DNA of 64,000 nt from an uncultured Gammaproteobacteria bacterium. Lineage in GTDB: Bacteria; Patescibacteriota; Microgenomatia; 2-02-FULL-39-11. Every line of letters starts with the position of its first letter. Positions within the stretch are counted from its first letter, which is position 1. Both the position numbers and the translations under genes were made by a program. The stretch covers positions 13,349 through 77,348 of the forward strand of contig CAYIFB010000004.1 in the NCBI GenBank assembly GCA_964362665.1, written 5' to 3'. This document shows, piece by piece, positions 4,743-62,840 of this stretch. The notes under the pieces were generated by a model. The model did not search any database. It saw only the letters and a program-made list of their open reading frames with translations, and was not told where the DNA came from.

Positions 4743-4763
4743 ATAGCCTTAGGATTGATAAAA

Positions 4764-5159
4764 TTATTTCCTAGCCAGTACTTCCTGAAATCTTTTAAAG
4801 TTCTTATTCCAGTCCATATACTCCATTCCAATTCCATGACTTACTCCGTATTGCTGTATTTCTTTATATTTTTCAGAATTCCATATTCCTTCATTTGGTA
4901 ATTCAAATATTTTATCTTTGAAAATAGCGTAAACTTTTTTATCGTTCCAAAATAGCAGATACCATTCCGGTAGAGTTTCACAGGTGAATTTTTTTGCCTC
5001 CTGCAAAACTTCGTTATCTTGGAATTTCAAATAATATGCGTGTACATACGGGTGATTTTGAGAAGTAGGTACAAATTCGATATCAACCTTAATGGCTTTA
5101 TAGTTATTAAGGACAAGAGGATTTCGAAGTGACTCTGACTCAATATAACCGTAATACAT
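4764..5159 (-). CDS. Hypothetical protein (131 aa)
   Basis: ORF only. It is co-oriented with, and immediately downstream of, the divergent ATPase. Confidence 0.4.
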   Translation of the reverse strand: MYYGYIESESLRNPLVLNNYKAIKVDIEFVPTSQNHPYVHAYYLKFQDNEVLQEAKKFTCETLPEWYLLFWNDKKVYAIFKDKIFELPNEGIWNSEKYKEIQQYGVSHGIGMEYMDWNKNFKRFQEVLARK

Positions 5160-5279
5160 ATATTTCTGGTCTGATTTTAATTTATCGATTATAAAATATC
5201 AACAAAAATATTGAAGGGCGATTAGGGATGATTCAAACAGAATGGAGATAAGGTTTTGATTGATTTGAAAAATTGTAAC

Positions 5280-6527
5280 TTATTTCATCCGCTTTTGGAT
5301 ATCCTCTTCAACGTCTTTCAGATTTACTCCATATTTTTGTTGCGATTGTCTTTTTATCTCGTCATTATTTGATATTTTAGAATCTAAAGCTGGATATTCT
5401 TTTTTAAAATCTACCGGTTTCTCTTTGACTACCACATCTCCGTCCTTTAATGATTTAATATATGCATTATATTTATTAAGTAAACATAATTTATCAACTG
5501 ATATCTTCTGATTATGATATTCCGGAGCTATAATTTCCGCGTCTGAAGTAGCCAATCTGAAAGAAATTACCGAACCGATTCTGAGTAATGATCTCTTAAG
5601 CTGAATGTTCGCCTCAGATATTTTATTAGAAGTTAATACCAAATTCACTCCATATCTTCTATTTTCTGTCAGCATTTCGGTAATAAATGTTGCTGGCCAG
5701 GAAACTGCTTCATCAATATAGAGATTTATCGGAGTATTTACACTATGACTTTTTAATTCGTTTATTAATTTATACAAAAGTATGGAGGTAACTACTTTAT
5801 TTGCATCATTATATTTTCTTAAGTTTCCGAAGTTGAAAAGTATTATTCTGTTTTCAGAAATAAGTGAAGGGAAATTTATTGAAGACTTTGATTGACATAA
5901 AATTGACCGCATCATTTTATCAGTTACAAAAATACTGAGTTTCGAAACAATGTAATCCAGTATTTCTGATTTATGAAAGTCAGATGTCTGGGCGACCTGT
6001 TTATTCCAGTAATTTTGTATAACCGGATCTTGAACCTTCGGAAGTATTTTTTTTACATATTCTGTATCAGTCAGACAGCGAAGAAGTTCAATAAAAGAAG
6101 ACTGCTCATCGTACATGATCGTGGAAACGGCATTTCTGACCGCATGTTCAAATCTTGGTCCAATCACCCCTGTTCTATTCGGATCATACAAATCATACAT
6201 TAAATTTATTAAGAAACTGCTTATATCTTCTCTTTTTCCTTCTTCTTTTTCTTCAAATAAATTCAAACCGACAGGATAATCTTTGTTTCCAAGATCAATA
6301 TAAGCTATTTTTTGTTGTTCTTCTTGTGTAGAAGTTGAGAGTATCTCTTCAATTAGATCTCCATATTGATCAAATAAGATAATCGGTCTTGAAGCTATAA
6401 CATCCTGATTTATCAGATCGAGTAAATATTTCGATATTCCGACACCGGGACTTCCTGTAATGAGAATATTTCGGGTTCTATCCATGTCTGATAAAATTAT
6501 TTCAGAAGATAAAGTAAGATTATTCAT
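5280..6527 (-). CDS. Divergent P-loop NTPase, HerA/FtsK/VirB4-like (DUF87/AAA_10-like)
   Basis: Degenerate Walker A (ITGSPGVGISK), Walker B-like LYIDEAVSW, and a following RRYGVNLVLTSNKIS block resembling the HerA/VirB4 'GRKYG...TQRP' region. The Q/R residues are replaced by S/N. Confidence 0.4.
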   Translation of the reverse strand: MNNLTLSSEIILSDMDRTRNILITGSPGVGISKYLLDLINQDVIASRPIILFDQYGDLIEEILSTSTQEEQQKIAYIDLGNKDYPVGLNLFEEKEEGKREDISSFLINLMYDLYDPNRTGVIGPRFEHAVRNAVSTIMYDEQSSFIELLRCLTDTEYVKKILPKVQDPVIQNYWNKQVAQTSDFHKSEILDYIVSKLSIFVTDKMMRSILCQSKSSINFPSLISENRIILFNFGNLRKYNDANKVVTSILLYKLINELKSHSVNTPINLYIDEAVSWPATFITEMLTENRRYGVNLVLTSNKISEANIQLKRSLLRIGSVISFRLATSDAEIIAPEYHNQKISVDKLCLLNKYNAYIKSLKDGDVVVKEKPVDFKKEYPALDSKISNNDEIKRQSQQKYGVNLKDVEEDIQKRMK

Positions 6528-6644
6528 ATATTTATATCTTAATCGAATGTTCCTTTTAATTCAAATTATACTTTATGAATTAGAAAATTGTGAATATTAT
6601 TGAGGAAAATCTAATAGAGTATAAGTTCTCAACCGATGGGAATT

Positions 6645-7799
6645 TTATCTGAAAATTCGCGGGTTTATTTTTATTATCTTATCATCCCCTTCTTTCACCT
6701 GTCCCCGTCCGTCTCTGTTGCTGGTAGAAAGGTATATGAATCCGTCAGTTCCCAAAACGACAGCGCGTATCCTGCCGAATCTTTGCTTAAAGTGAGTGAT
6801 TAAATTAAGCTTATTTTCTTTGGTAATTTTTGCTTCATAAAGAGCTTCTCCCCGAAGACCTGAAAAAAATAAGCTGCCATTCCAATATATCATCCCTGAA
6901 GGTGCCCAGGTGTCTTCTGATCCTGATTGAATAACTGGAGAAACAAAACCTTCTTTTGTTTGATTACCGCGAACTTCCGGCCAGCCGTAGTTTGCTCCTT
7001 TGGTAATTATATTAATTTCATCATACCCTGTTTGGATTCCCGATGGCCCATGTTCTGTTTCCCAAAGAGTTCCGTCTTTGTCCCAGGCAAGTCCTTGAGG
7101 ATTTCTATGCCCCCAAGAATAAACTGCATTTCCGAAAGGATTATCCGATGGAATATTTCCATCGTCTTTAATCCTTAATATTTTTCCATTAAGAGAGTTT
7201 TTATCCTGCGCAAGATGAGAATTTTCTGCGTCTCCCGTCGTAATGTACAGATATCCGTCAGCTCCGAAGGCTATTCTTCCACCATCGTGATTTGATGAGC
7301 CTTTAATCCCTTGTAAAATAGCTTTTCTTTCACTTAAGGTGTCATTTAAAAATTTATATCTCTCAACCCTGTTAAATATTCCACTCGCATCTTGAGATGT
7401 AGAGTAAAGATAAATATAATTATTTAGAGAAAAATTCGGATGAAGGACAAGACCCAGAAGACCCCCTTCACCTATATGTTTTACTCCTTCAATTTCTTTT
7501 ACTACTTGAGTTTCAGATCCAATTATCAGAAGTTTTCCGGACCTTTCGGTCACCAGCATATCGCCAGTAGGTAAAAATGCAATTTCCCAGGGAATGTCCA
7601 GATTTTGGGCAACAATCTTAATATCTTCGGCGTTTGACGGGGTGGTTTTTAAATTTACCTCATCCTGAATGATTTTCTGTCTTGGAGCAAAGAAATAATA
7701 TCTTAACTTTGCTCGAAAATGAAAAATAAAAAGAACAAAAATGATTATAGAGATTAATAAATAATAAAATTTATTCTTGTATAACTCATTTATCTTCAT
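6645..7799 (-). CDS. PQQ-dependent sugar (glucose/sorbosone) dehydrogenase family protein, membrane-anchored
   Basis: Beta-propeller sugar-dehydrogenase blocks NHDGGRIAFG, GHRNPQGLAWD and ANYGWP, plus an N-terminal TM segment. Confidence 0.75.
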   Translation of the reverse strand: MKINELYKNKFYYLLISIIIFVLFIFHFRAKLRYYFFAPRQKIIQDEVNLKTTPSNAEDIKIVAQNLDIPWEIAFLPTGDMLVTERSGKLLIIGSETQVVKEIEGVKHIGEGGLLGLVLHPNFSLNNYIYLYSTSQDASGIFNRVERYKFLNDTLSERKAILQGIKGSSNHDGGRIAFGADGYLYITTGDAENSHLAQDKNSLNGKILRIKDDGNIPSDNPFGNAVYSWGHRNPQGLAWDKDGTLWETEHGPSGIQTGYDEINIITKGANYGWPEVRGNQTKEGFVSPVIQSGSEDTWAPSGMIYWNGSLFFSGLRGEALYEAKITKENKLNLITHFKQRFGRIRAVVLGTDGFIYLSTSNRDGRGQVKEGDDKIIKINPRIFR

Positions 7800-9541: not shown

Positions 9542-11139
9542 TAATTCTTTGAGTAAATATAAAACCAGGTTTTAGCAGGCTGATATATGCTTAGAGAATA
9601 AAATTGTTTTATCAGTCTTAATTTGTCCAATTTTGACGTTGAGATAAATAAAGAGTTTTCTTCTGTTAGGACTTTCTCCATAATTTTCTCTTGGGATACA
9701 AATTGAATATTGGATATTGAAAGTCTGTTATTTTCTTTCTGAATTAAACTTGGATCGATTTTATTATACCAGGCAAAAAATATAAAAGGATTTGCATATT
9801 CATCGTTAAAATAGATCGATCGATAATTTTCTCTCTGTTGCCAAACAAACGGAATAACATCCTGAAAATATCCCTGCCAGAAATATTCAGAATCTTGCTT
9901 ATAAAGCAAAGCGTAATCCTTGATATAAAAAGAAATATTGATTAAAAAAGACGCTATTATAATTATTATTGCAACTTTATAGAATTTATATTTTTTGGCA
10001 AAAGCCAATGTAAAAACCAAACCGAGTGTTATAAAGTAAGCAAAAGCCGGTAATGCTATTAATGTTCTTCCCGCATGTGGTATGTCATTTGTTAGTGAAG
10101 CCGGAATTGGGGCTAAAAACAACCAGGATACAAAAAAAATATTGATTTTATTATTAAAACCCTTCATATTAAATAAGCCGATAATTAAAAAAGGAAGACA
10201 AATAACAAGTAAATTACCATAATTCGGAAAAGAAGTTGTTGGTGAATTTCTGTCAAAAAACAAAAAGTCGGTCTGAAAATGTATTAGGTAATGTTTGAGT
10301 ATCTCTCCTGCAAGTACAAGTCTTCTATTGCTAATTATTCTGCATAATGGCAAATGCGCTTTTTGACAGCCGTCGTAAAGATTATTAGTTTTGACTGCGA
10401 TATATGGTTCATTGGTAATTAGTAAAAATTTAGCATGAATACCGGCCACTCCGTATACGGTTTGCCATAAGATTACACCGCCGGTTAAAATTATTAATGT
10501 AATAGCCAGCCATTTTTTTATTATTTCTTTCTTTAAATTTTTTCTGAAAAACACTAAAAAATAAATTAACAAAATTACTGGCACAAAAAAGCGGGAAGAA
10601 TTATATGTGTACATGGATAAACCGAAAGATAAACCAGCAAGTATCTGGAAAAATTTTCTCTCAGTAACAAAAAAATAAAATCCTGCGGACATATAAGCAA
10701 ATGAAATAATCGGATCTAATGCAGCGCGGCTAAAATGGATATGCCATGGGGATATTGCAACAATTAATGCTGTCAGGAAACTAAGAATATTATTATTTGT
10801 TACTCTAAGCATAAAAGCATATAAAAAAAGAATGCTGACAATACCTAAAATGGCCGGAACGATACGTATCGAAAAATTTGATTCTCCAAATAATCTAATT
10901 ACGGGAATATACATATATGAAAGCGCCGCAGGTTTATACTCACCAAATGATTTAAGATACATCGGGTTTTTCACTCCCCATTCGTCTTTGCCTGTGAGCA
11001 TAAGAGAATACGCGTTATAGCCATAAGCAGTTTCGTCCCAATTTAAGCCATATGGAATACTGCCTATCCACAAAATACGGAAAAATGCAGATATTAAAAT
11101 AAGGAATATATAAGTAAATAATTTATTATTACGACTCAT
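9541..11139 (-). CDS. GT-C family glycosyltransferase (GT39/ArnT/PMT-like)
   Basis: N-terminal loop with a DE motif (LNWDETAYGYNAYS) typical of ArnT/PMT GT-C enzymes; polytopic membrane topology. Confidence 0.55.
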   Translation of the reverse strand: MSRNNKLFTYIFLILISAFFRILWIGSIPYGLNWDETAYGYNAYSLMLTGKDEWGVKNPMYLKSFGEYKPAALSYMYIPVIRLFGESNFSIRIVPAILGIVSILFLYAFMLRVTNNNILSFLTALIVAISPWHIHFSRAALDPIISFAYMSAGFYFFVTERKFFQILAGLSFGLSMYTYNSSRFFVPVILLIYFLVFFRKNLKKEIIKKWLAITLIILTGGVILWQTVYGVAGIHAKFLLITNEPYIAVKTNNLYDGCQKAHLPLCRIISNRRLVLAGEILKHYLIHFQTDFLFFDRNSPTTSFPNYGNLLVICLPFLIIGLFNMKGFNNKINIFFVSWLFLAPIPASLTNDIPHAGRTLIALPAFAYFITLGLVFTLAFAKKYKFYKVAIIIIIASFLINISFYIKDYALLYKQDSEYFWQGYFQDVIPFVWQQRENYRSIYFNDEYANPFIFFAWYNKIDPSLIQKENNRLSISNIQFVSQEKIMEKVLTEENSLFISTSKLDKLRLIKQFYSLSIYQPAKTWFYIYSKN

Positions 11140-11277
11140 GATTTTTTAACTCGGTAAATAGATCTTTTATATGAGATGTCCAGACATAATTCACTTCATT
11201 TTACATCAAACTAATTTTTCTTGAATAAGTTTGATATAATCTATTTAAACCTGCTGACATATTAATACTTAAAATAA

Positions 11278-12369
11278 ATGAATTTTAAGGATTTAATCAT
11301 CGTATTTTTTTCATTATTTGATGTGGTATCAGGTGCCATAATTGCATTAAGTTATGGTTTTTTGATGCTTCCTTCAGCCATCGGTTATGCTGTCGGCGCT
11401 ATAGGAAGTTTGATTGTAGGATCCGTAACTCCGGTCAGCTTCATGTATGAAAGTATGGTTTTATCTTTCGGACAATCCTCAAATTTTAAATACAGAATAT
11501 CTATGATTCTCTGGGCAGCATTGCTGACAGGTGTTTTGGGTTTGTTCGGTCTACCTCAATTTATTGTCAATTCCATCGGTCAGGAAATTTTTTTGGGAAT
11601 GCTGGCAGGAGTCGGTCTGTATTTGGGAAAAGTTGGTTTAGAAATTGCTTATCAAAATAAAAAAATAGGGATTCCCTGCCTGATAATTGCCGTCGCCACA
11701 CAGCTTTTAAAAAACGATTTAATTCTCACGGTTTCACTCAGCATTCCCTTCGGTATTATACTTTTTTTAATTTATAACAAAAAATATGGCGAGAAAGAAA
11801 GAACTGTATACCATATAAAAATTCCTGTTTATAAATCCTGGATGCATATGGTGAAGTCAGAAATGAAATTGATTATTCCCGTAATAAACCGCAGGGTTTT
11901 AGTTGGAACACTGGCATTAAGTACTCTGACTATCGGCGGAAATATCGCTTATACCGCAGCAAATACGCAGATATCTCATACTTTAGCCACTTATAATCAA
12001 TCAACGGTTATTTCTAGCCTGGCTGATTTTGCGTCGTCTCTTTTTGGTGGAGCGAATATGGAACTTATCGTAACTCCAACAGCTTCGGCACCTCATCCTA
12101 TATTAGCCGGTATTCTGTTCATGTCAGTGGCTGCAATTATTTTAGCTACCGGCTTAGTACATAAAATAGCACGTTTTGTACCGATTGCTGCAATGGGAGG
12201 CTACCTTTTTGTAATAGGAGTGTTAATTATCTTGCCCTATAATGCTTATGATGCCTTTAAGGCCGGAAATGCGGGAATCGTCAGTTTGACGATGGCGATT
12301 ACTTTATTTACTAATCCGTTTTACGGGATTCTTGCAGGGGTTGCTTCCAAAATATTATTAGGCTCATAA
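11278..12369 (+). CDS. Integral membrane permease-like protein (family uncertain)
   Basis: About 10 hydrophobic segments. An extended -10 element (TGaTATAAT) at 11232-11240 lies upstream. Confidence 0.4.
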   Translation: MNFKDLIIVFFSLFDVVSGAIIALSYGFLMLPSAIGYAVGAIGSLIVGSVTPVSFMYESMVLSFGQSSNFKYRISMILWAALLTGVLGLFGLPQFIVNSIGQEIFLGMLAGVGLYLGKVGLEIAYQNKKIGIPCLIIAVATQLLKNDLILTVSLSIPFGIILFLIYNKKYGEKERTVYHIKIPVYKSWMHMVKSEMKLIIPVINRRVLVGTLALSTLTIGGNIAYTAANTQISHTLATYNQSTVISSLADFASSLFGGANMELIVTPTASAPHPILAGILFMSVAAIILATGLVHKIARFVPIAAMGGYLFVIGVLIILPYNAYDAFKAGNAGIVSLTMAITLFTNPFYGILAGVASKILLGS

Positions 12370-49351: not shown

Positions 49352-50536
49352 ATGCAACAAAAAATACACATCTTTGATACAACACTTCGGGATGGCGAAC
49401 AATCACCCGGAGCAAAACTTAATACTGACCAAAAAGTTGATCTAGCCAAACAGCTTGAAAAACTGGGTGTGGATGTGATTGAAGCCGGTTTTCCTATTTC
49501 ATCACCCGGTGATTTCAAATCTGTAGAAAAAGTGGCAAAAACAATAAAAAACTGCACTGTTTGTGGTCTTACACGCGCTCTAAAACGGGATATCGATTGT
49601 GCTTATGATGCTATAAAACACGCTAAATACCCTAGAATTCACACAGGTATCGGGGCATCGGACATTCATATAAAATATAAATTTAATTCCACCCGGGAAA
49701 AAATCTTAAAACAGGCTATAGAAGCTGTGAAATACGCCAAAAAATATGTTGACGATGTTGAGTTTTATGCCGAAGACGCAGGACGAGCTGATAATAAATT
49801 TCTGGTCTTAATGATTACTGAAGCAATTAAAGCAGGTGCAACTGTGGTCAATATTCCAGATACTACGGGTTACTGTTTACCGGAAGACTGGGGAGTAAAA
49901 ATAAAATATTTATATGAAAATGTCGCCAATATCCACAAAGCTCGTGTCTCCGTACATTGTCATGATGATCTTGGTATGGCAACTGCAAATACAATCTCCG
50001 GGGTGATAAACGGAGCCAGACAAGCGGAGGTTACCATTAATGGAATTGGTGAACGGGCCGGTAACACTTCGTTGGAGGAAGTTGTCATGGCAATCCATAC
50101 CTATAGAAATTCTTTACCATTTTATACAAAGATTAATACTCATGAGCTTTATAAAACCAGCCGGATGGTCTCGGAAATCATGGGAATTCCGGTACAACCA
50201 AATAAAGCAATCGTTGGAGTAAATGCCTTTGCCCATTCGTCAGGAATTCATCAGGATGGGATAATCAAAAGACGGGAAAATTACGAAATAATAGATCCGA
50301 AAATTATCGGGTTGGATTCATCTAAAATTGTTTTGACAGCCAGAAGCGGACGAGCTGCGCTTAGGCATAAGTTAAAAAATTTAGGGATTGATTTAACAAA
50401 GGATAAATTGGATATCTTTTATAAAGAATTTTTAAATTTCGCCGATCTGAAAAAAGAAATTCATGATGATGATTTGAAAGTTTTAATTAAAATCAGCAAT
50501 GATCAAACCTTAAAAAATAAATATTCCTCTATATGA
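49352..50536 (+). CDS. leuA: 2-isopropylmalate synthase/citramalate synthase family, short form lacking the C-terminal allosteric domain
   Basis: LRDGEQ and [13 protein letters not shown] blocks. At 394 aa it stops before the LeuA_dimer regulatory region. Followed by leuCDB. Confidence 0.8.
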
Positions 50537-51933
50537 AACCCAAGACGCTATTTGAAAAAATTTTGGGTTCTCATAGAGTATCTCTCAATCTGAATTCTCC
50601 GTCATTAATTTATATTGATATCCATTATCTTCATGAAGTGACATCTCCTCAAGCTTTTTATAATTTGAGGAAGAAAAAATTAAAAGTTCGCCGCCCTGAA
50701 AGAACTTTTGCTACTTGCGACCATAATGTTTCTACAACTAATCAATTTGAAATTAAGGATAAATTGTCGAATATTCAAATCAAGACTTTAAAAAAAAATT
50801 GCCGTGATTTTGGAATAAAACTTTACGGTTTGAATAATCCCAATCAGGGGATCGTTCATGTCATCGGGCCGGAGCTTGGAATTACCCAACCCGGTCAGAC
50901 CATAGTCTGTGGCGACTCTCATACCTCAACACACGGTGCCTTTGGCGCTCTGGCGTTCGGGATTGGCACAACTGAAATCGAACACGTTTTAACGACAAGC
51001 TGTTTGGTACAAAACCCGATGAAAACGATGCAAATTAAAATTACAGGAAATTTAAATAAAGGCGTCACGGCAAAGGATGTAATTCTGACAATACTGACAA
51101 AAATCGGGACTAAGGGCGGTTCCGGGTTTGCCATAGAATACTGCGGATCTTTAATCAATAAACTGAATATGGAAGAAAGAATGACAATCTGCAATATGAG
51201 TATTGAAGCGGGAGCCAGATGTGGAATTATAGCTCCTGACCGGAAAACTTTTGCCTATTTAAAGGGCAGATTATTTGTGCCAACAGGAAAAAAATGGAAT
51301 GAAGCTCTAAATTATTGGCAGACTTTAAAAACCGACAGAAATGCACACTTCGATAAATCAATTAATATTGATGCAAATAAAATAGAACCATTGGTCACCT
51401 GGGGTACTGATCCGTCAACAGGAATTAAAATAACACAAAAAATTCCGTCTCCCGAAACAGCGCAATCTCCTGAGGAAAAAATGTCACAGAAAAAAGCGCT
51501 ATCTTATATGAATTTGAAACCCGGCATGTCTCTTGAAGGTTTTTCTATTGATTATGTCTTTATTGGAAGTTGTACTAACGCCAGAATTTCAGATCTGAGA
51601 CAGGCTGCAATAATTGTGAAAGGAAAAAAAGTATCGGGAAGTGTAGTTGCTCTAGTCGTCCCCGGATCAAAACAGGTAAAGCTTCAGGCAGAAAAAGAAG
51701 GTTTGGATAAAATTTTTAGAGACGCAGGCTTTCAGTGGCGTTTCTCAGGATGTTCTGCCTGTATCGCCATGAATGAAGATAAAATTCCATCTGGAAAATA
51801 TTGTGTTTCTACCAGTAACCGTAATTATGAAGGCAGACAAGGCCCAGGTGCACGCACATTCTTGACAAGTCCTATCATGGCAGCTGCGGCAGCTATAGAA
51901 GGAAAAATTACTGACGTAAGAAAATTTTTATGA
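50533..51933 (+). CDS. leuC: 3-isopropylmalate dehydratase large subunit
   Basis: Aconitase-family blocks [24 protein letters not shown] and Fe-S Cys ligands. Confidence 0.9.
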
Positions 51934-52529
51934 AACATTTCATAAATATTATGTCAAATTGTATAACTATTCCGGAAGAGAATATTGATACCGACCAGAT
52001 CATCCCTGCTCAATTTTTAAAAACCACAAAAAAAGATGGCCTAGGTAAATATCTTTTTTATAATTGGCGTTTTGATAAGTTTGGTAAAACAAAGAAAAAT
52101 AATCGGTTCGACTATTCGAATCACCATATCAATAAAATATTAATTGCAGGAAATAATTTTGGTTGCGGATCAAGCCGTGAACATGCTGTCTGGGCTCTTA
52201 CCGACTTTGGATTTAAAGTTATCATCTCTTCATCTTTTGGAGATATTTTTTACACCAACTCTTTCAAAAACGGTCTGTTGTTGATTATAATCAAAAAAAA
52301 TGAAGTAGAAAAACTTTTTACGGCTGTTGAAAATCCCAAAACAAAAATAATTATAGATTTGGAAAAACAAACAATCGTCATTCCCTCAAAAAGTATTTTA
52401 ATCTCATTCCAAATCGACGAGTTTAAAAAAAATAATTTATTAAATGGTGCTGATGAGCTAGAATTCATCCTCTCACAGGAGAAAAAAATAGCAGAGTTTG
52501 AGAAAAAACATAAATTATATTTAATATGA
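51930..52529 (+). CDS. leuD: 3-isopropylmalate dehydratase small subunit
   Basis: NIDTDQIIPAQFLK swivel-domain pattern; 4-bp overlap with leuC. Confidence 0.85.
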   Translation: MKHFINIMSNCITIPEENIDTDQIIPAQFLKTTKKDGLGKYLFYNWRFDKFGKTKKNNRFDYSNHHINKILIAGNNFGCGSSREHAVWALTDFGFKVIISSSFGDIFYTNSFKNGLLLIIIKKNEVEKLFTAVENPKTKIIIDLEKQTIVIPSKSILISFQIDEFKKNNLLNGADELEFILSQEKKIAEFEKKHKLYLI

Positions 52530-53608
52530 ATAAAACTATCGCTATATTACCAGGTGACGGAATTGGCCCGGAAGTGGTCGAACAGGGTGTAAAAGTCTTA
52601 AAAGCGATAGCTTCTAAATTCCATCATCAGTTTATTTTTAAATTCGGTTTAATCGGCGCTGAAGCGATTGAAAAAACCGGTGTTCCTCTACCTGATAATA
52701 CTTTAAGTTTGTGTAGAGAATCTGATGCGGTACTCTTTGGCGCCATAGGAGATCCGAAATTTGACTTAGATCCAAAAGCTAAAGTCAGACCGGAACAGGG
52801 ACTCCTGAAACTGCGTCAATCATTAAAACTTTTTACGAATCTTCGACCTGTCAAACTTTATCAGGATTTAATAAATATTTCTCCACTCAAGAAAGAGAAA
52901 TTAAAAAATGTTGATTTAATGATTGTCAGAGAATTAACCGGCGGAATTTATTTTGGAGAGCCAAGACTTCGAAAAAATAATGGGAAAACAGCTGTGGACA
53001 CTTCAATATATTCCGTAGATGAAATTACCAGAGTTGCCAAGATTGCGTTTGAAATGGCATTAATAAGAAGAGGTAAAGTTACCTCTGTTGATAAAGCCAA
53101 TGTCTTGGAGACTTCCCGACTCTGGCGGGAAACTGTCACGGAAATTTCGAAGAATTATCCATCTGTCGAATTAAATCATATGTTTGTTGATAACGCTTCA
53201 ATGCAACTTATTAAAAATCCGTCTCAATTTGATGTTATTCTGACCGAAAATATGTTCGGTGATATTTTATCGGATGAAGCTTCGGTTTTAGCCGGATCAA
53301 TTGGACTACTCCCTTCAGCATCAATCGGTGAAAAAAATGCCTTATATGAACCGATTCATGGAGCGTTTAACAAGGCAAAGGGTAAAAATATAGCCAATCC
53401 GATCGGGTCGATATTATCCATCGCCATGATGTTGGAATTTTCCTTTAACCTTACTGAAGAAGCGCAATTAATTGAAAAAGCGATAAAAAAAACATTTTCT
53501 GAAGGATATAGAACTTCCGACCTAATTGATGTAAATACTCCTCAAAAAAAAATCTTAGGAACAAAAGAATTTACTGATTTGGTGGTAAAAAGTATCGATG
53601 AAAGTTAA
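52526..53608 (+). CDS. leuB: 3-isopropylmalate dehydrogenase
   Basis: NMFGDILSDEASVLAGSIGLLPSAS signature. Confidence 0.9.
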   Translation: MNKTIAILPGDGIGPEVVEQGVKVLKAIASKFHHQFIFKFGLIGAEAIEKTGVPLPDNTLSLCRESDAVLFGAIGDPKFDLDPKAKVRPEQGLLKLRQSLKLFTNLRPVKLYQDLINISPLKKEKLKNVDLMIVRELTGGIYFGEPRLRKNNGKTAVDTSIYSVDEITRVAKIAFEMALIRRGKVTSVDKANVLETSRLWRETVTEISKNYPSVELNHMFVDNASMQLIKNPSQFDVILTENMFGDILSDEASVLAGSIGLLPSASIGEKNALYEPIHGAFNKAKGKNIANPIGSILSIAMMLEFSFNLTEEAQLIEKAIKKTFSEGYRTSDLIDVNTPQKKILGTKEFTDLVVKSIDES

Positions 53609-54525
53609 ACTTTAGTCAACCAAGAATTATATTTTTTCTCTTTTCCCCGTACGATATCAAAAAATAATTTTTGGATTTTGGAGGTCAATGGGCCTATTTT
53701 AGAGCCGATCACTCTACCGTCAACTTCTGCAATCCAGGCAACCTGTGCCCCTGTTCCTGTCAAAAATGCTTCATCGGCAATATATACTTCGGTTCTGTCT
53801 ATTCTTCTTTCTTCAACCGGTATCTTTAAATCTTTTGCCAATTGAAGAATGGTTCTTCTTGTAATTCCTTCCAAAACATCTTCTGATCTGGCTGATGTGA
53901 TAAGAATCCCGTCTCTGATTATAAAAAAATTAGCCCCGCTTCCTTCAGCCACGTGCCCGTCCTGGGTCAACATCAAAGCATCATCAAATCCAAGCCTGAC
54001 CGCATCTCCTTTGGCAAGTGATGAATTTATGTAGCCTCCTGTAGCTTTTATTCGTGACGGAATCATATTGTCATTAATCCTGATCCAGTTGGAAACTGCA
54101 AGTTTTAATCCTTTACTTATGGATAAATATTCCCCAAGCGGAATCATATATATGGCCAGATCAAACTTGACCGGGTGAAGATCCGGCGAAATCTCATACG
54201 AAGAGGCATAAGCAAAAGGTCTGATATAACAATCAGAATGCGGATCGTTTTTTCTTGCTAGATTAAGAGTTAAGTCTACAAGCTCCTGATGCGTCAACTT
54301 TATTGACTTATTCAAGACTTTTATAGAATTTAAAAACCTCTGGAAATGGTCTTTGAGCCGAAAGATATTTATTTGCTTTTTATCATAAGACAAATAACCC
54401 CTTATCCCTCCGAAAACTCCGGTTCCGTACTGCAGGGCATTCGTCATGATGCTGACTTTTGCTTTTTCGATTGGTACTATTTCTTTTTCAAAAAATGCGT
54501 ATGTATAAGATTTATCTCCGGCCAT
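53605..54525 (-). CDS. ilvE: Branched-chain amino-acid aminotransferase (class IV)
   Basis: Class IV PLP fold blocks; convergent with leuB, with overlapping stop codons. Confidence 0.85.
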   Translation of the reverse strand: MAGDKSYTYAFFEKEIVPIEKAKVSIMTNALQYGTGVFGGIRGYLSYDKKQINIFRLKDHFQRFLNSIKVLNKSIKLTHQELVDLTLNLARKNDPHSDCYIRPFAYASSYEISPDLHPVKFDLAIYMIPLGEYLSISKGLKLAVSNWIRINDNMIPSRIKATGGYINSSLAKGDAVRLGFDDALMLTQDGHVAEGSGANFFIIRDGILITSARSEDVLEGITRRTILQLAKDLKIPVEERRIDRTEVYIADEAFLTGTGAQVAWIAEVDGRVIGSKIGPLTSKIQKLFFDIVRGKEKKYNSWLTKV

Positions 54526-54556: not shown

Positions 54557-54973
54557 TTAACAGCAGGAACATTTCCCGCCACAATTTTCTTCGTTTCCTA
54601 AAACAGCAAGACATTCAATTTCCACCAGCGCATCTTGGGGTAAACGAGCCGCTTCTATAGTCGCCCGGGCCGGATACGGCTTTTGAAAATAAGTTGCATA
54701 CACCTCGTTCATTTGAGAAAAATCAGAAACATTTTTAAGATAAACCGTGGTTTTGACAACATCAGAAAAATCAGCTCCGGCAGATGAAAGAACGGCTTTC
54801 AGGTTTTCCAAAACCTGCTTTGTTTGCGCTGCAACTCCGCCTTCAACAAATTGATTTGTTTTTGGATCTTTCCCAACTTGCCCTGAACAAAAAATAAAAT
54901 TATTGATTACTACAGCTTGAGAATAAGGGCCTATAGCTCCCGGAGCCTTTTTGGTTTCAATTGCTTTTTTCAT
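54557..54973 (-). CDS. ridA: RidA/YjgF enamine/imine deaminase with unusual Cys-rich C-terminal tail
   Basis: RidA blocks (GPYSQAV, ARATIEAARLP, EIECLAV) plus an extra GNEENCGGKCSCC at the C-terminus. Confidence 0.8.
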   Translation of the reverse strand: MKKAIETKKAPGAIGPYSQAVVINNFIFCSGQVGKDPKTNQFVEGGVAAQTKQVLENLKAVLSSAGADFSDVVKTTVYLKNVSDFSQMNEVYATYFQKPYPARATIEAARLPQDALVEIECLAVLGNEENCGGKCSCC

Positions 54974-56838
54974 TCCTTATTTTTTCCCCCTTTTTTCAAT
55001 CTTTGATAAACTAATTCATTATAACCTTTTTCAAAAGCCTCAACAGCTGCAACGATTATATCAGGAGACGTCCCTTTTTCAACAACTTGCGTACCATACT
55101 CATCTTTTAATACCATCGTCGCTTCGACTGTAGCATCCGAACCAGTAGTTGGAATTTCCACCTGAAAATCAGTAAGTCTGAATTGTGTTTTGTCTTCCTT
55201 TTTAATGGCTGAAGTTATTGAATTTATGGCCGCATCCACCGGCCCGACTCCTTCCTGACTTATGTTGTAGTGATGGCCGTTCAATAATACTTTTACTTGT
55301 GCGACTGGCTTTTTTTTCTTGAATGTTTCGATATGAAAATCTTCCACCTCCAGAGTTTTTTTCCGCCTTTCATCCTGAATAACTGTTTCGATGATAGACT
55401 GCAGATCGGCTTTGGCAATCGATTTTCCTTTCACCTTGATAAATTTCTCGACAACATTTCGAACAATATTTACTGTTGCTTCATCCAAATCCATCTTAAA
55501 CTCTTTTTTAATTGATTCTTTTGCCTGGTTAAAATTTGGCACTGTGGTAAAAATATTTTTCTCTTTCTCCGCTGCGCCTGCCGCACGCAAAGTAAGTATT
55601 CCAGTTTTTAACACCCGATCCACTTCAGTAATGATTGGTTCAATTGTTGGAGGCTCTGCCAACACTTTCAGGGTCGTTGATGGATCTTTGAGTCCGGCAC
55701 CTGTTGCTACGCAAATTATCACTTCATCCTTTTTAAGGATTTTTCGTTTTATTAATTTTGATAAAGCTGCAATGACGGTTGCTGATGACGGCTCCACGTA
55801 CAATCCTTCCATTCTTGCCAAGGTTTGTTGAGAATGAAGCGTTTCATCATCCGTTACACTAACTGCCGCACCTTTTGAGTCTTTTAATGCTGCCATAACT
55901 TTCGGAGCATCAATTGAAATACCGCTGCAGGCAATAGCCGAACAAATAGTTTGTGCTTTATCAAGCGGCTTAACCGTGCTTTGAGTTTCATACGCGGTAA
56001 CAATAGGTGAAGCACCCTCCGCCTGTACAGCTATAATTCTAGGTAATTTTTTGATGAGTCCGAGTTCATAATATTCTTTAAACCCTTTCCAAATGTAGGA
56101 AAGGTTAGTTCCCATACCAACCGGCACTAAAACCCAATCGATTGTTTCAAACCGCAATTGTTCACAAACTTCGAAGGCGAGTGACTTTTGACCTTCTCCA
56201 CGAAATGCATAATCACCGGCTAAATAAAATCCGTATTTTTCAGAAACCTTCACACACAATCCGAAAGCGTCAGTATATGTACCCCGTACTTGTATAACAT
56301 GGGCACCATATGAAAGAGCTTGAGCAAGCTTTCCTTTCGGAGTATTTTCCGGAACCAAGACGTAACAAATCATACCAATCTGTCCCGCATACGCGGCAAC
56401 TGAAGCGGCCATGTTACCTGTTGAGGCTACACAAACAGTTTTATATCCCAGTTCTTTTGCTTTATGAAGCTCTACAAAACTTCCGCGATCTTTAAATGCC
56501 CCTGTTGGATTCATGCCTTCATTTTTTATATAAAGTCTGTTCAGATTTAATTTTTTTCCTAAATTTTGCGCATGATGAAGCGGGGTATTTCCTTCGCCTA
56601 AAGTTTTTAAATTTTGCCGATTTAAAAGCGGATAAAAATCCAGATATTTTAAGACTGATGGAGGTGCAGTTTGCATAAGGTATGAATTCATTTGATTTTT
56701 TAGCATTTCATAGTCATACACGACATCGAGCGGTCCGCCGCAGAATTCGCAGACCGTACAGTTTTGCCGTTCATCTGTTCTTTTTTTGCAAACAAAGCAG
56801 TGCAAATAATAAAAACAATTACTGGTGTGATTCATCAT
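54970..56838 (-). CDS. Fusion protein: N-terminal zinc ribbon, fold-type II PLP enzyme (threonine synthase-like), C-terminal LeuA-type allosteric/dimerisation domain
   Basis: Cys ribbon CxxC...CxxC at the N-terminus. PLP-lysine block NPTGAFKDRGS matches the ThrC 'PTxSFKDRG'. The C-terminal ~180 aa carry GVGPVDAAINSI and TTGSDATVEATMVL...GTSPDIIVAAVEAFEKGYN, typical of the LeuA_dimer regulatory domain. It sits in the ilvBN-x-ridA-ilvE operon. Confidence 0.6.
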   Translation of the reverse strand: MMNHTSNCFYYLHCFVCKKRTDERQNCTVCEFCGGPLDVVYDYEMLKNQMNSYLMQTAPPSVLKYLDFYPLLNRQNLKTLGEGNTPLHHAQNLGKKLNLNRLYIKNEGMNPTGAFKDRGSFVELHKAKELGYKTVCVASTGNMAASVAAYAGQIGMICYVLVPENTPKGKLAQALSYGAHVIQVRGTYTDAFGLCVKVSEKYGFYLAGDYAFRGEGQKSLAFEVCEQLRFETIDWVLVPVGMGTNLSYIWKGFKEYYELGLIKKLPRIIAVQAEGASPIVTAYETQSTVKPLDKAQTICSAIACSGISIDAPKVMAALKDSKGAAVSVTDDETLHSQQTLARMEGLYVEPSSATVIAALSKLIKRKILKKDEVIICVATGAGLKDPSTTLKVLAEPPTIEPIITEVDRVLKTGILTLRAAGAAEKEKNIFTTVPNFNQAKESIKKEFKMDLDEATVNIVRNVVEKFIKVKGKSIAKADLQSIIETVIQDERRKKTLEVEDFHIETFKKKKPVAQVKVLLNGHHYNISQEGVGPVDAAINSITSAIKKEDKTQFRLTDFQVEIPTTGSDATVEATMVLKDEYGTQVVEKGTSPDIIVAAVEAFEKGYNELVYQRLKKGGKNKE

Positions 56839-57317
56839 TTATATAACGCCGTTCGTCCTGTCCGGACAAACTCCAATATTTTATAAATTTTCATGTTGTC
56901 GTAAAAAGCATCAATTTTGTCTTCATCTCCCGTAACTTCAATCATCAGAGAATCTTTTGACATATTTATCACTCTGCCCCGAAAATGTTCTATAAGACGC
57001 AGTATTTCGCTTTTTTCTTCCCGGCCTTTTATTCCGATTTTAATTAAAGCTAATTCTCTGGAAACTAATAATTCGCCTAACACATCTTCAACTCTGATCA
57101 CATTAACAAGTTTATTTACTTGTCTGCAGATATTTAAAACCTGCTCTTTGTCTCCGCTGACGGTTATCGTAAACCTGGTAACTCCCTGTATTTCTGTATG
57201 TCCGACCGTGGCCGACTCGATATTGCACATTTTACGCCGGAAAAGCCATAAAATTCTATAAAAAACGCCGGGCTTATTTTCCGTCCAAATGATGATATTT
57301 GATAAGTCTTTTGTCAT
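56835..57317 (-). CDS. ilvN: Acetolactate synthase small (regulatory) subunit
   Basis: ACT domain plus the C-terminal AHAS small-subunit domain. Confidence 0.85.
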   Translation of the reverse strand: MTKDLSNIIIWTENKPGVFYRILWLFRRKMCNIESATVGHTEIQGVTRFTITVSGDKEQVLNICRQVNKLVNVIRVEDVLGELLVSRELALIKIGIKGREEKSEILRLIEHFRGRVINMSKDSLMIEVTGDEDKIDAFYDNMKIYKILEFVRTGRTALYK

Positions 57318-57318
57318 A

Positions 57319-59034
57319 TTAAATTTTCAACTCCTCTTTACAGATAACCATATCGTCGATCCCTGCTCCGGCCGGAATCATCGGAAAGACATTTTCTTCT
57401 GCTTCAACTACAAACTCCACTAAAAAGGGACCGCGGGCTTTTCTAGCTTTGGCAATTGCATATTTGGACTCTGATAACGTGGTTGCTTTCAAAGAGGGAA
57501 TACCAAAACCCTCACAAAGTTTTTGGAAATTGGGGTTTTTCAATGATACTTCTGAATAATTGCCTTTATAAAACAATTCCTGCCATTGTCTCACCATACC
57601 CAAAAAATTATTATTTAGGAGCGCTATTTTGACGGCAATTTTCTCCTGAACAATAGTTGCCAGTTCCTGCAAGGTCATTTGGATTCCTCCGTCACCTATC
57701 ACTATCCAAACTTCGCGTTTGGGATTAGCGTATTTGGCTCCCATCCCCGCAGGAAGAGCAAAACCCATTGTACCGAGACCTCCAGAGGTAAAATGACTGT
57801 TATAGGTAAGAAAATTAGAATATCTTGCTGCGTACATTTGGTTTTGACCAACATCCGCTACTATAGTCGCCAATCCTTTGGACTGCTTAGCTATTTCATT
57901 CACAACCTGTGCGGATTTGAGTTTTGGTGAATTTAATTCGATATCGTACACTTTTTCCTTTTCAATTTTTTTCCATTTCTGAAATCGGGACAGCCAACTT
58001 GGATTTTTCTTATTGATTAGCTTTGGAAAAATTTGGGTCAAAACTGTTTTCGCATCCCCCACCACACCGAGAAATGGCTTCACATTTTTACCAATTTCCG
58101 AAGGGTCAATATCAATATGGATTATTTTTGCCTGCGGCGCGTATCCTGCTACATTACTGGTCACCCTGTCATGAAAACGCATTCCAACCGCAAGCAAAAT
58201 ATCTGCTTGATTCGGGGCTTTATTTGCTGCAACATTTCCGTGCATCCCGGGCATCCCCATAAAAAGAGGGTGTGATGAAGGGATCGTAGACAGGGCAAGT
58301 TGGGTAAGGGTAATAGGAATATCCTGCCTTTCGGCGATTTTTAATAAAGTTTGTCCGTCCCCGGATAAAAGCATCCCATGTCCCGCAACGATTAATGGTC
58401 TTTCTGCATTATTTAAGAGATCCGCAATTTGCATTATTTCTATATTCGTGGCTTTCAGTTTAATTTTTTTCTTTAAATTTATGGATTTTGGGTAATTAAA
58501 CTCCGCATATGATGCTTGAGCGTCTTTGGCAATGTCGACCAGTACCGGACCTGGTCTTCCATTAGTTGATAAGTAAAATGCCTCTGTAAGACACTCTGCT
58601 ATATCTTCAGTTTTGGTAATTAAATAGTTATGCTTGGTAATAGGTAAAGTAATTCCTAAAACATCCGCCTCCTGAAAAGCATCCGTTCCGATAAGAGGAG
58701 AAGGAACCTGACCGGTAATGCAAACCATCGGAATTGAATCCATCATGGCATCAGCCAAACCTGTCACGAGATTAGTAGCTCCCGGACCGCTTGTCGCAAA
58801 ACACACACCCGGTTTACCTGTTGCCCAAGCGAAACCCTCTGCAGCATGTGCAGCGCCCTGTTCGTGCCGGACCAATACATGATGAATTTCCGGATATTTA
58901 TACAAAGCGTCGTAAATGGGTATATTAGCTCCTCCCGGATAGCCAAAAATTACGTTTATCCCCTGTCGCAGTAAACATTCACAAATAATTTCCGCGCCTT
59001 GGACTTTTTGTCCTTCTTTCAATCTAGTTTTCAT
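57319..59034 (-). CDS. ilvB: Acetolactate synthase large subunit (TPP-dependent)
   Basis: TPP-enzyme N, M and C domains; GDGG TPP-binding motif. Confidence 0.9.
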   Translation of the reverse strand: MKTRLKEGQKVQGAEIICECLLRQGINVIFGYPGGANIPIYDALYKYPEIHHVLVRHEQGAAHAAEGFAWATGKPGVCFATSGPGATNLVTGLADAMMDSIPMVCITGQVPSPLIGTDAFQEADVLGITLPITKHNYLITKTEDIAECLTEAFYLSTNGRPGPVLVDIAKDAQASYAEFNYPKSINLKKKIKLKATNIEIMQIADLLNNAERPLIVAGHGMLLSGDGQTLLKIAERQDIPITLTQLALSTIPSSHPLFMGMPGMHGNVAANKAPNQADILLAVGMRFHDRVTSNVAGYAPQAKIIHIDIDPSEIGKNVKPFLGVVGDAKTVLTQIFPKLINKKNPSWLSRFQKWKKIEKEKVYDIELNSPKLKSAQVVNEIAKQSKGLATIVADVGQNQMYAARYSNFLTYNSHFTSGGLGTMGFALPAGMGAKYANPKREVWIVIGDGGIQMTLQELATIVQEKIAVKIALLNNNFLGMVRQWQELFYKGNYSEVSLKNPNFQKLCEGFGIPSLKATTLSESKYAIAKARKARGPFLVEFVVEAEENVFPMIPAGAGIDDMVICKEELKI

Positions 59035-61316: not shown

Positions 61317-62840
61317 TTATGTTTCATCCCTTACGCGGTACTGTAAAGCTTCGGCAATATGGGATGTCAAAACCTCTGTTTCTCCGGATAAATCAGCAAT
61401 GGTCCTGCCGACTTTAATTATCCTGTAGTAAGTGCGGGCGGAAAAACGCATGGCGGTAACGGCCTGTTTCAGAAGATTCAAACAACTTTCCGATAAAATA
61501 ATTTTTTCTTTGATAAAGCGTGCGGTCATGTCAGAGTTACAGACAAAATCGGTTTTGGCAAACCGCTTGCTTTGGAGATTCCTCGCTTTCTGGACCCTTT
61601 TTCTGACATCTTTTGACGACTCGCTTTTAAAATTACCTGTTAATTTTTCCGCAGTTACAGGAGGAAGATCAATATGCAGGTCAATTCTGTCCAAAATCGG
61701 GCCGGATATTCTTTTTTTGTATTGGGAAATTTGTCCAGGCAGACAGCGGCAGTTTTTTACTTTGTCTCCGAAGTATCCGCAGGGGCAGGGGTTGCTGGCT
61801 GCAATAAGCACAAATTTGGCTGGATAAGTGACTGTACCTACCGCCCGGGAAATAGTCACAATCCCGTCTTCAATCGGCTGGCGAAGAGACTCCAGAACGT
61901 GGCGCGGAAATTCCGGAAATTCATCCAGAAACAACACCCCGCGGTGCGCCATAGATATTTCACCGGGTGTTGGTTTAGTCCCTCCTCCAATCAGTCCAAT
62001 CCGGGACGTTGTATGGTGGGGAGCCCGGAAGGGCCGGACGGTAATAACTGATGCTCCTTCGGGAATACTCCCTGTGATTGAATAAATTTTGGTAACCTCT
62101 AGAGCCTCTTGTTCTGTTAATGTCGGCAAAATACCGGGAAGGGCCCGGGCAAGCATGGTTTTTCCTGCCCCCGGCACGCCTTTCATAAAAAGATTATGCC
62201 CGCCGGCGGCGCTAATCTCGAGCGCCCTTTTCCCGAGCTCCTGACCTGAAATTTCTGACAGATCAAACTCCGGATATATTTTTTCTTCCAGAGTATGAAA
62301 GGGGATGTTGGGATGAAATTTTATCGGCAAAGTTTTATTCAAATGACGGAAAAGTTCGAGGATCGAGGTGACCGGATAAATTTTAATGCCTTTGACAATC
62401 GCCGCTTCGCGGGCGTTCACAAACGGCAGGAAAACCGAGTCAAATTTTTTTTCTTTAGCAAGAAGAGTAAGAGGAAGTATTCCCTTGGTGTGGCGAAGCG
62501 TTCCATCCAGAGACAGCTCGCCGAAAAATAGAGAGTCATTCACGTCGCAGACTAATTGTTCTGACGCCATCAGAATCCCCAAAGCAATCGGCAAATCGTA
62601 GGATGGCCCTTCTTTGGGAAGATCAGCCGGGGCAAGATTGACCGTAATCCTGTGCGGAGGAAACTCTGCTCCAGAATTTTTGATGGCGGATCGCACTCTT
62701 TCCTTTGATTCCTCAATTGATTTTGAAGGAAGCCCGACTATAGTAAAAGAAGGCAGTGACTGGGAGGAAATATCCACCTCTACGGTCACAGGTAAACAAT
62801 TTAATCCAATAGTAGCTCCAGACATCACTTTTGCCAGCAT
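61317..62840 (-). CDS. comM: YifB/ComM family Mg-chelatase-like AAA+ ATPase
   Basis: N-terminal Lon-protease-like domain; Walker A GVPGAGKT; Walker B LFLDEFPEF; C-terminal domain. Confidence 0.85.
   Translation of the reverse strand: MLAKVMSGATIGLNCLPVTVEVDISSQSLPSFTIVGLPSKSIEESKERVRSAIKNSGAEFPPHRITVNLAPADLPKEGPSYDLPIALGILMASEQLVCDVNDSLFFGELSLDGTLRHTKGILPLTLLAKEKKFDSVFLPFVNAREAAIVKGIKIYPVTSILELFRHLNKTLPIKFHPNIPFHTLEEKIYPEFDLSEISGQELGKRALEISAAGGHNLFMKGVPGAGKTMLARALPGILPTLTEQEALEVTKIYSITGSIPEGASVITVRPFRAPHHTTSRIGLIGGGTKPTPGEISMAHRGVLFLDEFPEFPRHVLESLRQPIEDGIVTISRAVGTVTYPAKFVLIAASNPCPCGYFGDKVKNCRCLPGQISQYKKRISGPILDRIDLHIDLPPVTAEKLTGNFKSESSKDVRKRVQKARNLQSKRFAKTDFVCNSDMTARFIKEKIILSESCLNLLKQAVTAMRFSARTYYRIIKVGRTIADLSGETEVLTSHIAEALQYRVRDET

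Follow-up and report, generated by a model that had tools for sequence, protein, structure and literature searches.

Threonine dehydratases such as IlvA and TdcB release enamine and imine products that are hydrolysed by RidA, which protects the branched-chain aminotransferase IlvE (PMC3565831). A related activity exists in threonine synthase (ThrC): canonical ThrCs deaminate threonine weakly as a side activity, and that of Microcystis aeruginosa, whose Km for O-phosphohomoserine is 4.4 uM and whose active-site residues resemble those of Thermus thermophilus ThrC, moonlights as a deaminase (PMC12172450). On the regulatory side, citramalate synthase (CimA) has a PF08502 domain that serves as its sensor of isoleucine (PMC13381585). 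In this report, we describe a gene, here called X, that joins a ThrC-derived catalytic domain to a regulatory domain of the LeuA/CimA type. It lies in an ilv operon on a 64-kb stretch of contig CAYIFB010000004.1, and 'the window' designates hereafter the whole 64,000 nucleotides of that stretch.

The architecture of X, its active-site substitutions, the statistics of its gene context and the conservation of its regulatory pocket were obtained directly with computational tools. From these we infer its substrate, its chemistry, its effector and a role for Asp209 as a built-in replacement for phosphate: X is probably a threonine dehydratase derived from ThrC, which would supply 2-oxobutyrate for isoleucine in place of IlvA and be feedback-controlled through its LeuA-type domain. 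An earlier note on this DNA had proposed a threonine or serine dehydratase of this make, regulated by branched-chain amino acids (BCAAs), and its hypothesis gains support from the apparent loss of the ThrC pocket, the alignment of D209 with the PFDHP motif of IlvA, the ilv and ridA context, and a conserved effector pocket.

Architecture and active site of X

The gene and its parts are as follows (residue numbers are those of X unless stated otherwise).

54970..56838, minus strand: gene X, whose 622-aa product unites a Cys4 ribbon, a pyridoxal 5'-phosphate (PLP) domain derived from ThrC, a helical linker and a regulatory domain of the LeuA/CimA type
56716..56811, minus strand: N-terminal Cys4 zinc ribbon, residues 10-41 (C14, C17, C30, C33)
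55699..56604, minus strand: fold-type II PLP catalytic domain of ThrC lineage, residues 79-380 (PF00291)
56491..56493, minus strand: Lys116, which forms the Schiff base with PLP and matches K61 of T. thermophilus ThrC
56410..56424, minus strand: S-T-G-N-M loop, residues 139-143, whose last position, M143, corresponds to T88 of ThrC
56200..56217, minus strand: G208-D209-Y210-A-F-R213 segment, which stands in for N154-S155-x-N157-P-x-R160 of ThrC, with the Arg kept and the Asp new
56104..56124, minus strand: P-V-G-M-G-T-N loop, residues 239-245, where ThrC has P-V-G-N-A-G-N
55354..55641, minus strand: helical linker, residues 400-495, with helices at 403-488 in the AlphaFold2 model
54976..55353, minus strand: LeuA/CimA-type regulatory domain, residues 496-621, made of two beta-beta-beta-alpha units

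The open reading frame (ORF) starts with ATG and encodes the 622-aa protein with an N-terminal Cys4 ribbon that the earlier note had read from it; the four cysteines are kept in 111-114 of 120 family members, the remainder having gaps at these positions. A structure prediction, which the note had proposed as a check, was run with AlphaFold2 on a 42-sequence family alignment (mean predicted local distance difference test score 82.8). The model shows the ribbon, with its cysteines on two beta-hairpins, the PLP domain, the helical linker and the two beta-beta-beta-alpha units.

The PLP core had been described as ThrC-like rather than IlvA-like, and profile scores bear this out. Pfam PALP (PF00291) matches residues 79-380 at 252.7 bits. 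The thrC model TIGR00260 scores X at 244.7 bits, above its cutoff of 167.1, and NF006050 at 291.7, below its cutoff of 303, whereas the NCBIfam IlvA/TdcB models all remain far below their cutoffs, at 60-102 bits against 317-801 (TIGR01127, 102 against 379; TIGR01124, 83 against 411; NF006674, 83 against 577). The solved structures nearest to X belong to genuine ThrCs of Aquifex, Bacillus, Thermus and Mycobacterium (2ZSJ, 6CGQ, 1UIM and 2D1F, respectively), and the top Foldseek matches of the model are all ThrC, with 37-41% identity and a target-normalised TM-score of about 0.85. Judged by these comparisons, the catalytic domain is of the ThrC type, not the IlvA type.

The fusion defines a family. 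The best 120 database clusters (formed at 90% identity), which are 48-92% identical to X, all combine PALP with LeuA_dimer; the family exceeds this number, and a second search, started from a stand-alone relative, added many more sequences. Within the candidate phyla radiation (CPR, Patescibacteria), the fusion is present in Gottesman-, Woese-, Jackson-, Peregrini- and Gracilibacteria, and beyond it in Methylomirabilota (NC10), in a metagenome-assembled genome (MAG) of an archaeon, and in Gammaproteobacteria, including the cultured Facilibium subflavum. X is 69-71% identical to the proteins of named Gottesmanbacteria and 92% identical to that of GCA_040960175.1, and on this similarity the window comes from a CPR genome resembling those of Gottesmanbacteria. 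Wherever sources name family members, they call them 'threonine synthase', and the literature that we searched contained no description of the PALP plus LeuA_dimer architecture. An assembly or frameshift artefact was ruled out, since the same architecture recurs in over 120 independent clusters with a conserved linker.

We compared the pockets of the 120 family members with those of five solved ThrCs (the plant enzyme included) and of ThrCs from 62 canonical loci of diverse bacteria and archaea, using T. thermophilus ThrC numbering. T88, N154, S155, R160 and N188 are reported to be the ligands of the substrate phosphate in the T. thermophilus enzyme (Omi 2003; Murakawa 2011), where the phosphate ion, once released and retained, reportedly drives the addition of water, so that threonine is formed instead of 2-oxobutyrate. 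All of these residue numbers match the identities in the 1UIM sequence, and the presumed ligand role of the four residues that X replaces rests on those reports together with strict conservation. These four are Thr, Asn, Ser and Asn, respectively, in 5/5 solved and 62/62 canonical ThrCs. In the family, the T88 position is Met in 119/120 members (M143 in X), N154 is Gly in 120/120 (G208), S155 is Asp in 120/120 (D209), and N188 is M, C, F, V or A in 120/120 (M242); among more divergent representatives, certain fusion proteins retain Asn at this last position. In addition, N157 is deleted in X and A189-G190 is changed to G-T. The catalytic elements are kept: the PLP lysine is invariant in the family (120/120) and in all ThrCs, S139-T140-G141-N142, the S-T-G-N carboxylate loop, is invariant or nearly so in the family, and the EGQK motif of ThrC is present in X. 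The canonical signature K-N-T / N-S-x-N..R / N-A-G (N-L-G in the plant enzyme) is thus replaced by K-N-M / G-D-Y..R / x-G-T at all fusion loci scanned. X appears to have lost the pocket for the phosphorylated ThrC substrate, with R160 alone of the five ligands kept.

When the family profile is aligned with E. coli IlvA, D209 pairs with the Asp of the PFDHP motif and R213 with a Val; because of the former pairing, the remodelled loop looks dehydratase-like. The pocket also bears on another explanation, that X is a genuine threonine synthase whose BCAA-sensing domain matches threonine supply to isoleucine demand. The TIGR00260 and NF006050 scores, the structural neighbours, and the retention of K116, the S-T-G-N loop and R213 would all suit such an enzyme, and allosteric threonine synthases are known in plants (PMC9081730). 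The uniform replacement of four residues that are invariant in five structures and 62 loci argues against it and, with the gene context presented below, makes it quite improbable.

Another possibility is that X makes 2-oxobutyrate while bypassing threonine, from homoserine or O-phospho-, O-acetyl- or O-succinylhomoserine, by gamma-elimination and deamination. This would be a ThrC side reaction turned into the main one, as in mammalian THNSL2. The ThrC reaction reportedly passes through an aminocrotonate-PLP intermediate already (Murakawa 2011), and if phosphate were no longer retained it should end in 2-oxobutyrate instead; the family also keeps the ThrC-type Arg213 without exception. There is also precedent in mammalian THNSL2, a ThrC homolog with phospho-lyase activity (Donini 2006, cited in PMC2748086, where the activity is given for a murine ThrC homolog). 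We nevertheless find this route unlikely: a phosphorylated substrate is hard to reconcile with the replacement of four out of five phosphate-contacting positions, in one case by an acidic residue, and hom and thrB are missing from the surroundings of X, as detailed below.

Stand-alone proteins of 340-440 aa, without a LeuA domain, share the K-N-M / G-D..R signature and usually keep Asn188. NCBIfam would call these thrC as well, and since they share its pocket signature the fusion family is part of a larger ThrC-derived clade. Where the context of such proteins was inspected, ridA directly follows the gene in one locus (L088), a 2-oxoacid:ferredoxin oxidoreductase operon adjoins it in another (L086), and amino-acid-catabolic genes surround it in a third (L087); these contexts fit a 2-oxoacid-forming role.

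More widely, the zinc-ribbon ThrC-like superfamily comprises many groups with non-ThrC signatures, for example K-N-A/N-G-Y-T/D-G-N and K-N-A/T-F-L-x/A-G-P. It also includes a set of proteins of 466-519 aa without the PLP lysine, K61 being replaced there by I, L, R, M, V or N. From its sequences, this superfamily looks like a large, mostly uncharted radiation annotated as threonine synthase. A third type of pocket, K-N-A / A-G-A-S-S-K / V-G-E, was found in one X-bearing locus from a MAG (L008), in a 411-aa zinc-ribbon ThrC-like paralog (4656-5891) that is encoded directly upstream of X (5940-7799) and followed by panE.

Such variety raises the question of whether the reaction of X is a different one of the fold-type II PLP repertoire, again under BCAA control, such as dehydration of serine to pyruvate for acetohydroxyacid synthase (AHAS), beta-replacement or racemisation. 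The many pocket signatures of the superfamily imply many specificities; relatives of ThrC include cysteate synthase (TIGR03844) and CapA2; the stand-alone proteins with the signature of X occur in catabolic contexts, and the NC10 copies of the fusion have no ilv link. We consider this doubtful, on the grounds that X is tightly and repeatedly coupled, in different phyla, to ridA and to ilvBN, ilvC, ilvD and ilvE, which suggests a step of isoleucine/valine synthesis that releases an enamine. Moreover, IlvA-type enzymes also dehydrate serine, which would make serine dehydration a side specificity and not a rival function (PMC3565831).

Gene context of X and of canonical thrC

To quantify the context, the same reference proteins, with Hom and ThrB verified by Pfam, were used within a radius of 10 kb around 24 X loci (the window, genome-scan loci and contig look-ups) and the 62 canonical ThrC loci. 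The two sets differ sharply. None of the 24 X loci has hom or thrB within this distance, versus 54/62 and 43/62 canonical loci, respectively. Conversely, ilvB is found at 13/24 X loci, from at least six lineages, versus 1/62, and ridA at 10/24, in all cases adjacent to X, versus 0/62.

These counts weigh on both explanations that keep X close to ThrC substrates. For a genuine threonine synthase, the distance from hom and thrB is unexpected, the adjacency of ridA has no rationale, and the X-bearing ilv clusters contain no other candidate for the 2-oxobutyrate step. For a homoserine-consuming enzyme, the ilv/ridA context fits as well as for a threonine dehydratase; against it stands the lack of hom and thrB around X. 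Aspartate-family pathways are not generally known from CPR bacteria, and homoserine esters may be unavailable to them.

Gene orders around X, in which ilv genes recur in several arrangements, are given below.

Gottesmanbacteria loci L005, L006 and L007: ilvD-ilvB-ilvN-ilvC-X-ridA-ilvE, then leuA-D on the opposite strand (leuCD being a single ORF in L006)
Gottesmanbacteria locus L001: ilvB-ilvN-X-ridA-ilvE-ilvC-ilvD
Peregrinibacteria: ilvE-ilvB-ilvN-X-ridA
Jacksonbacteria: ilvB-ilvC-(unassigned ORF)-ridA-X
Woesebacteria: ilvB-ilvN-ilvD-(aminotransferase)-ilvC-X
Unclassified MAG (L002): X-ilvE-ilvC-ilvB-ilvN
Facilibium subflavum (cultured): ilvB-ilvN-ilvC-X-ilvD

The ilv plus leu clusters of L005 and L007 are particularly informative: they encode all steps to isoleucine, valine and leucine except threonine dehydratase, and X is their sole unassigned enzyme. 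In L007, which belongs to a Gottesmanbacteria MAG, two ORFs of 506 aa (9896-11416) and 103 aa (11445-11756) take the place of X. This locus is alone in showing a split, and a frameshift or sequencing error is a more probable cause than a natural division of the gene.

In the window, X is embedded in an operon of the order ilvB-ilvN-X-ridA-ilvE, as the earlier note had it, with all genes on the minus strand.

57319..59034, minus strand: ilvB, AHAS large subunit, first gene of the operon, with TPP_enzyme_N, M and C domains
56835..57317, minus strand: ilvN, AHAS small subunit, with ALS_ss_C and ACT_AHAS_ss, overlapping the start of X by 4 nt
54557..54973, minus strand: ridA, enamine/imine deaminase (PF01042, 153 bits; TIGR00004, 174 against a cutoff of 106), overlapping the stop of X by 4 nt
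53605..54525, minus strand: ilvE, class IV branched-chain aminotransferase, last gene of the operon (PF01063, 148 bits)

The gap between ilvB and ilvN is 1 nt. X is the sole PALP-fold protein among the 107 ORFs of the window; the 64 kb therefore contain no canonical ilvA or thrC, which answers, at the scale of the window, a check that the note had proposed. Neither ilvC nor ilvD is present in the window, although both lie inside the same operon in L001 and L005-L007; in the genome of the window they are either elsewhere or lost.

Several other traits of the region were recorded. The RidA encoded beside X carries a Cys-rich C-terminal tail of 12-20 aa in all six Gottesmanbacteria loci (the window, L089, L007, L001, L006 and L005), with the motifs CGGKCSCC, CGKDCSCC, CCGEGSCNCC, GCGCGGNCGCS, GCCGGCC and GCCGKC. 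The RidA proteins of the Peregrinibacteria and Jacksonbacteria loci and of L088 (118-127 aa) have no such tail, which may bind metal or be redox-active. At the end of the operon, the convergent leuB (plus strand) and ilvE (minus strand) overlap by 4 nt at their 3' ends (53605-53608), so there is no room for a terminator between the two operons, ilv and leu. Scanned in full against Rfam at the gathering threshold, the window contains no match of any kind, be it tRNA, T-box, leader or riboswitch, so both operons are without recognisable RNA-based attenuation. In the search for a promoter of ilvB, the upstream region yielded two consensus matches, not above chance. The ilv operon is preceded by a gene for a Mg-chelatase-like ATPase of the yifB/comM type in the window (61317-62840), in L001 (6046-7575) and in L089 (3857-5380), and yifB also adjoins ilvL-ilvXGMEDA in E. 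coli K-12 (L090, 450-1970); this is either a conserved neighbourhood or a coincidence.

Regulatory domain and origin of the fusion

The C-terminal region had been assigned to the LeuA type by the earlier note, and this assignment holds. Pfam LeuA_dimer (PF08502) matches residues 474-609 at 93.5 bits, against a gathering threshold of 24.9, and the Pfam scan of X returned no match to ACT or Thr_dehydrat_C (PF00585). Nor did it return an HMGL-like match; the PF08502 domain is instead joined to a PALP domain. In LeuA, a helical subdomain comes before the regulatory domain; its counterpart in X is the C-terminal part of the linker, and NCBIfam LeuA models align to the linker from about model position 339-345 onward.

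Nine residues of Leptospira CimA, which reportedly line the isoleucine pocket (Zhang 2009), were checked for identity against the 3F6G chain and transferred to X by alignment.

Y430 of CimA: V534 of X
D431: D535
L451: L555
Y454: F558
I458: I562
T464: S567
V468: V571
P493: P592
Q495: I594

Five of the nine positions are identical, two are conservative and two are changed (Y430 to V and Q495 to I). Among the 120 family members, V534 is invariant, D535, I562, V571 and P592 are each kept in 119/120, and the other four positions vary among similar residues (L/I/V, F/Y, S/T/A/V and I/V/M). Because this conserved hydrophobic pocket is under selection, we argue that the domain senses BCAAs; from residue conservation, a functional effector pocket is likely. 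Its likeness to the CimA pocket makes isoleucine the logical and most likely effector, a choice that is not certain since two pocket residues differ from those of CimA.

As for the origin of the fusion, the neighbouring leuA was considered as a donor of the domain.

49352..50536, plus strand: leuA, 394 aa, with HMGL-like and HCS_D2 domains and without LeuA_dimer, first gene of the convergent leuABCD operon (49352-53608)

The start of leuC lies 4 nt before the stop of leuA. The leuA product scores 615.8 bits with the isopropylmalate synthase (IPMS) model NF002086, whose cutoff is 532, and covers positions 4-387 of 516. It scores as an IPMS, not as CimA; hence the cluster shows no sign of a citramalate route to 2-oxobutyrate. 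The earlier note had observed that this LeuA lacks its regulatory domain, which is correct, and had by implication linked the lack to domain shuffling within the pathway. The shuffling is real and family-wide, but the link to the truncated leuA does not extend to other genomes. Although the 394-aa form recurs in the 92%-identical relative L089 (16373-17557), L005, L006 and L007 encode LeuA proteins of 502-524 aa with the regulatory domain, alongside the same fusion. The regulatory domain of X scores 56 bits against an archaeal LeuA/CimA and 24-35 bits against the LeuA domains of Gottesmanbacteria. A recent transfer from the adjacent leuA was thus ruled out, and the fusion is ancient, given that full-length LeuA coexists with it and that the domain of X is only distantly related to those of these LeuA proteins. 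On this comparison, the truncation of LeuA is a separate event limited to the sublineage of the window, which may have a feedback-insensitive isopropylmalate synthase.

A further idea is that, in this sublineage, the module of X also acts in trans on the 394-aa LeuA, as the regulatory or dimerisation domain missing there. The C-terminal region of X aligns with positions 345-508 of the LeuA model, of which the truncated LeuA covers 4-387, and a LeuA without the domain is found both in the window and in L089. Other Gottesmanbacteria have full-length LeuA together with the fusion, however, the domain of X is a distant relative, and IPMS also occurs naturally in short forms (NCBIfam NF041069 and NF042434), all of which leaves action in trans very improbable.

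Proposed function and comparison with known systems

The mechanism that we propose for X as a threonine dehydratase would run as follows. L-threonine would form an external aldimine on Lys116-PLP; the alpha-proton would then be removed and the beta-hydroxyl would leave, which amounts to the last step of threonine synthase in reverse. In X the phosphate site that promotes the addition of water is dismantled (T88M, N154G and N188 to a hydrophobic residue) and Asp209 is placed next to Arg213, so aminocrotonate would be released instead of hydrated. RidA would hydrolyse the enamine/imine to 2-oxobutyrate and ammonia, which would also protect IlvE, encoded by the next gene downstream, and the AHAS (IlvBN) encoded immediately upstream would condense 2-oxobutyrate with pyruvate. 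The LeuA/CimA-type domain, probably as a dimer, would bind a BCAA, most likely isoleucine, and exert feedback inhibition as the ACT-like domains do in IlvA.

Several observations weigh against this proposal. The catalytic domain still scores above the NCBI thrC equivalog cutoff, and every source names X threonine synthase. R160 is retained as R213, invariant in 120/120 members where IlvA has Val, so an anionic group could still bind. The loci behind the context counts are not phylogenetically independent (6 are from Gottesmanbacteria and 7 of the NC10 type), the canonical ThrC set comes mostly from Paenibacillus and other Firmicutes, and X lies outside ilv operons in all 7 Methylomirabilota-type loci and in L008, L019 and L020. 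Lastly, the choice among isoleucine, leucine and valine as effector is drawn from similarity to the CimA pocket.

For a broader claim, we put the chances at about even: that X is the founder of an unrecognised class of biosynthetic threonine dehydratases, which would have arisen from ThrC by loss of the phosphate site, with an Asp in place of the phosphate and isoleucine control through a LeuA/CimA-type sensor, and which would represent an independent solution to the feedback control of 2-oxobutyrate supply in CPR, Methylomirabilota, some Thiotrichales and archaea. If these proteins are dehydratases, metabolic reconstructions of CPR, NC10 and Thiotrichales wrongly credit them with threonine synthesis and wrongly report an IlvA gap. 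X would then be a natural case of flipped PLP reaction specificity, in which losing a product-assisting phosphate site turns a synthase into a deaminase of its own product. The LeuA/CimA sensor would prove to be portable, a module able to control an unrelated catalytic fold, of use for studies of allostery and for biosensor and pathway engineering. That tiny CPR genomes keep a complete and compact isoleucine/valine/leucine cluster also bears on the nutritional dependence of symbionts.

Compared with class I ThrCs (Aquifex 2ZSJ, Bacillus subtilis 6CGQ, T. thermophilus 1UIM/1V7C and Mycobacterium tuberculosis 2D1F), X has the same catalytic fold, PLP lysine, S-T-G-N loop, R160 and EGQK motif. 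It differs by the uniform replacement of T88, N154, S155, N157, N188, A189 and G190, by its N-terminal zinc ribbon and C-terminal extension of about 220 aa, and by its partners, which are ilv, leu and ridA and not hom and thrB. The ThrCs of T. thermophilus, B. subtilis and M. aeruginosa establish that a ThrC scaffold can turn threonine into 2-oxobutyrate; unlike X, whose phosphate site is apparently abandoned, such enzymes stay efficient threonine synthases and have no LeuA-type domain. THNSL2, which belongs to a different ThrC subfamily, resembles the proposed X as a ThrC homolog that releases a 2-oxoacid rather than threonine; it differs in being eukaryotic, in using phosphorylated substrates and in having no regulatory fusion.

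With IlvA (E. coli 1TDJ/9D2Q), X shares its place in an ilv operon, a fold-type II PLP domain, the combination of a catalytic domain with a C-terminal domain for the sensing (in X, the probable sensing) of amino acids, and RidA as a partner. The two are only 15-24% identical, and X has a LeuA/CimA module of two beta-beta-beta-alpha units instead of the ACT-like Thr_dehydrat_C, as well as a zinc ribbon and a ThrC-type Arg. The PF08502 domains of Leptospira CimA (3F6G/3F6H), which binds isoleucine, and of M. tuberculosis LeuA (3FIG), which binds leucine, are carried by a DRE-TIM (HMGL-like) aldolase domain, whereas that of X is carried by a PLP enzyme. PLP dehydratases that carry an allosteric domain and are encoded in ilv operons are a known kind of system; what X would add is another catalytic lineage and another fold for the sensor, in a family that is widespread, uniformly mis-annotated and apparently undescribed.

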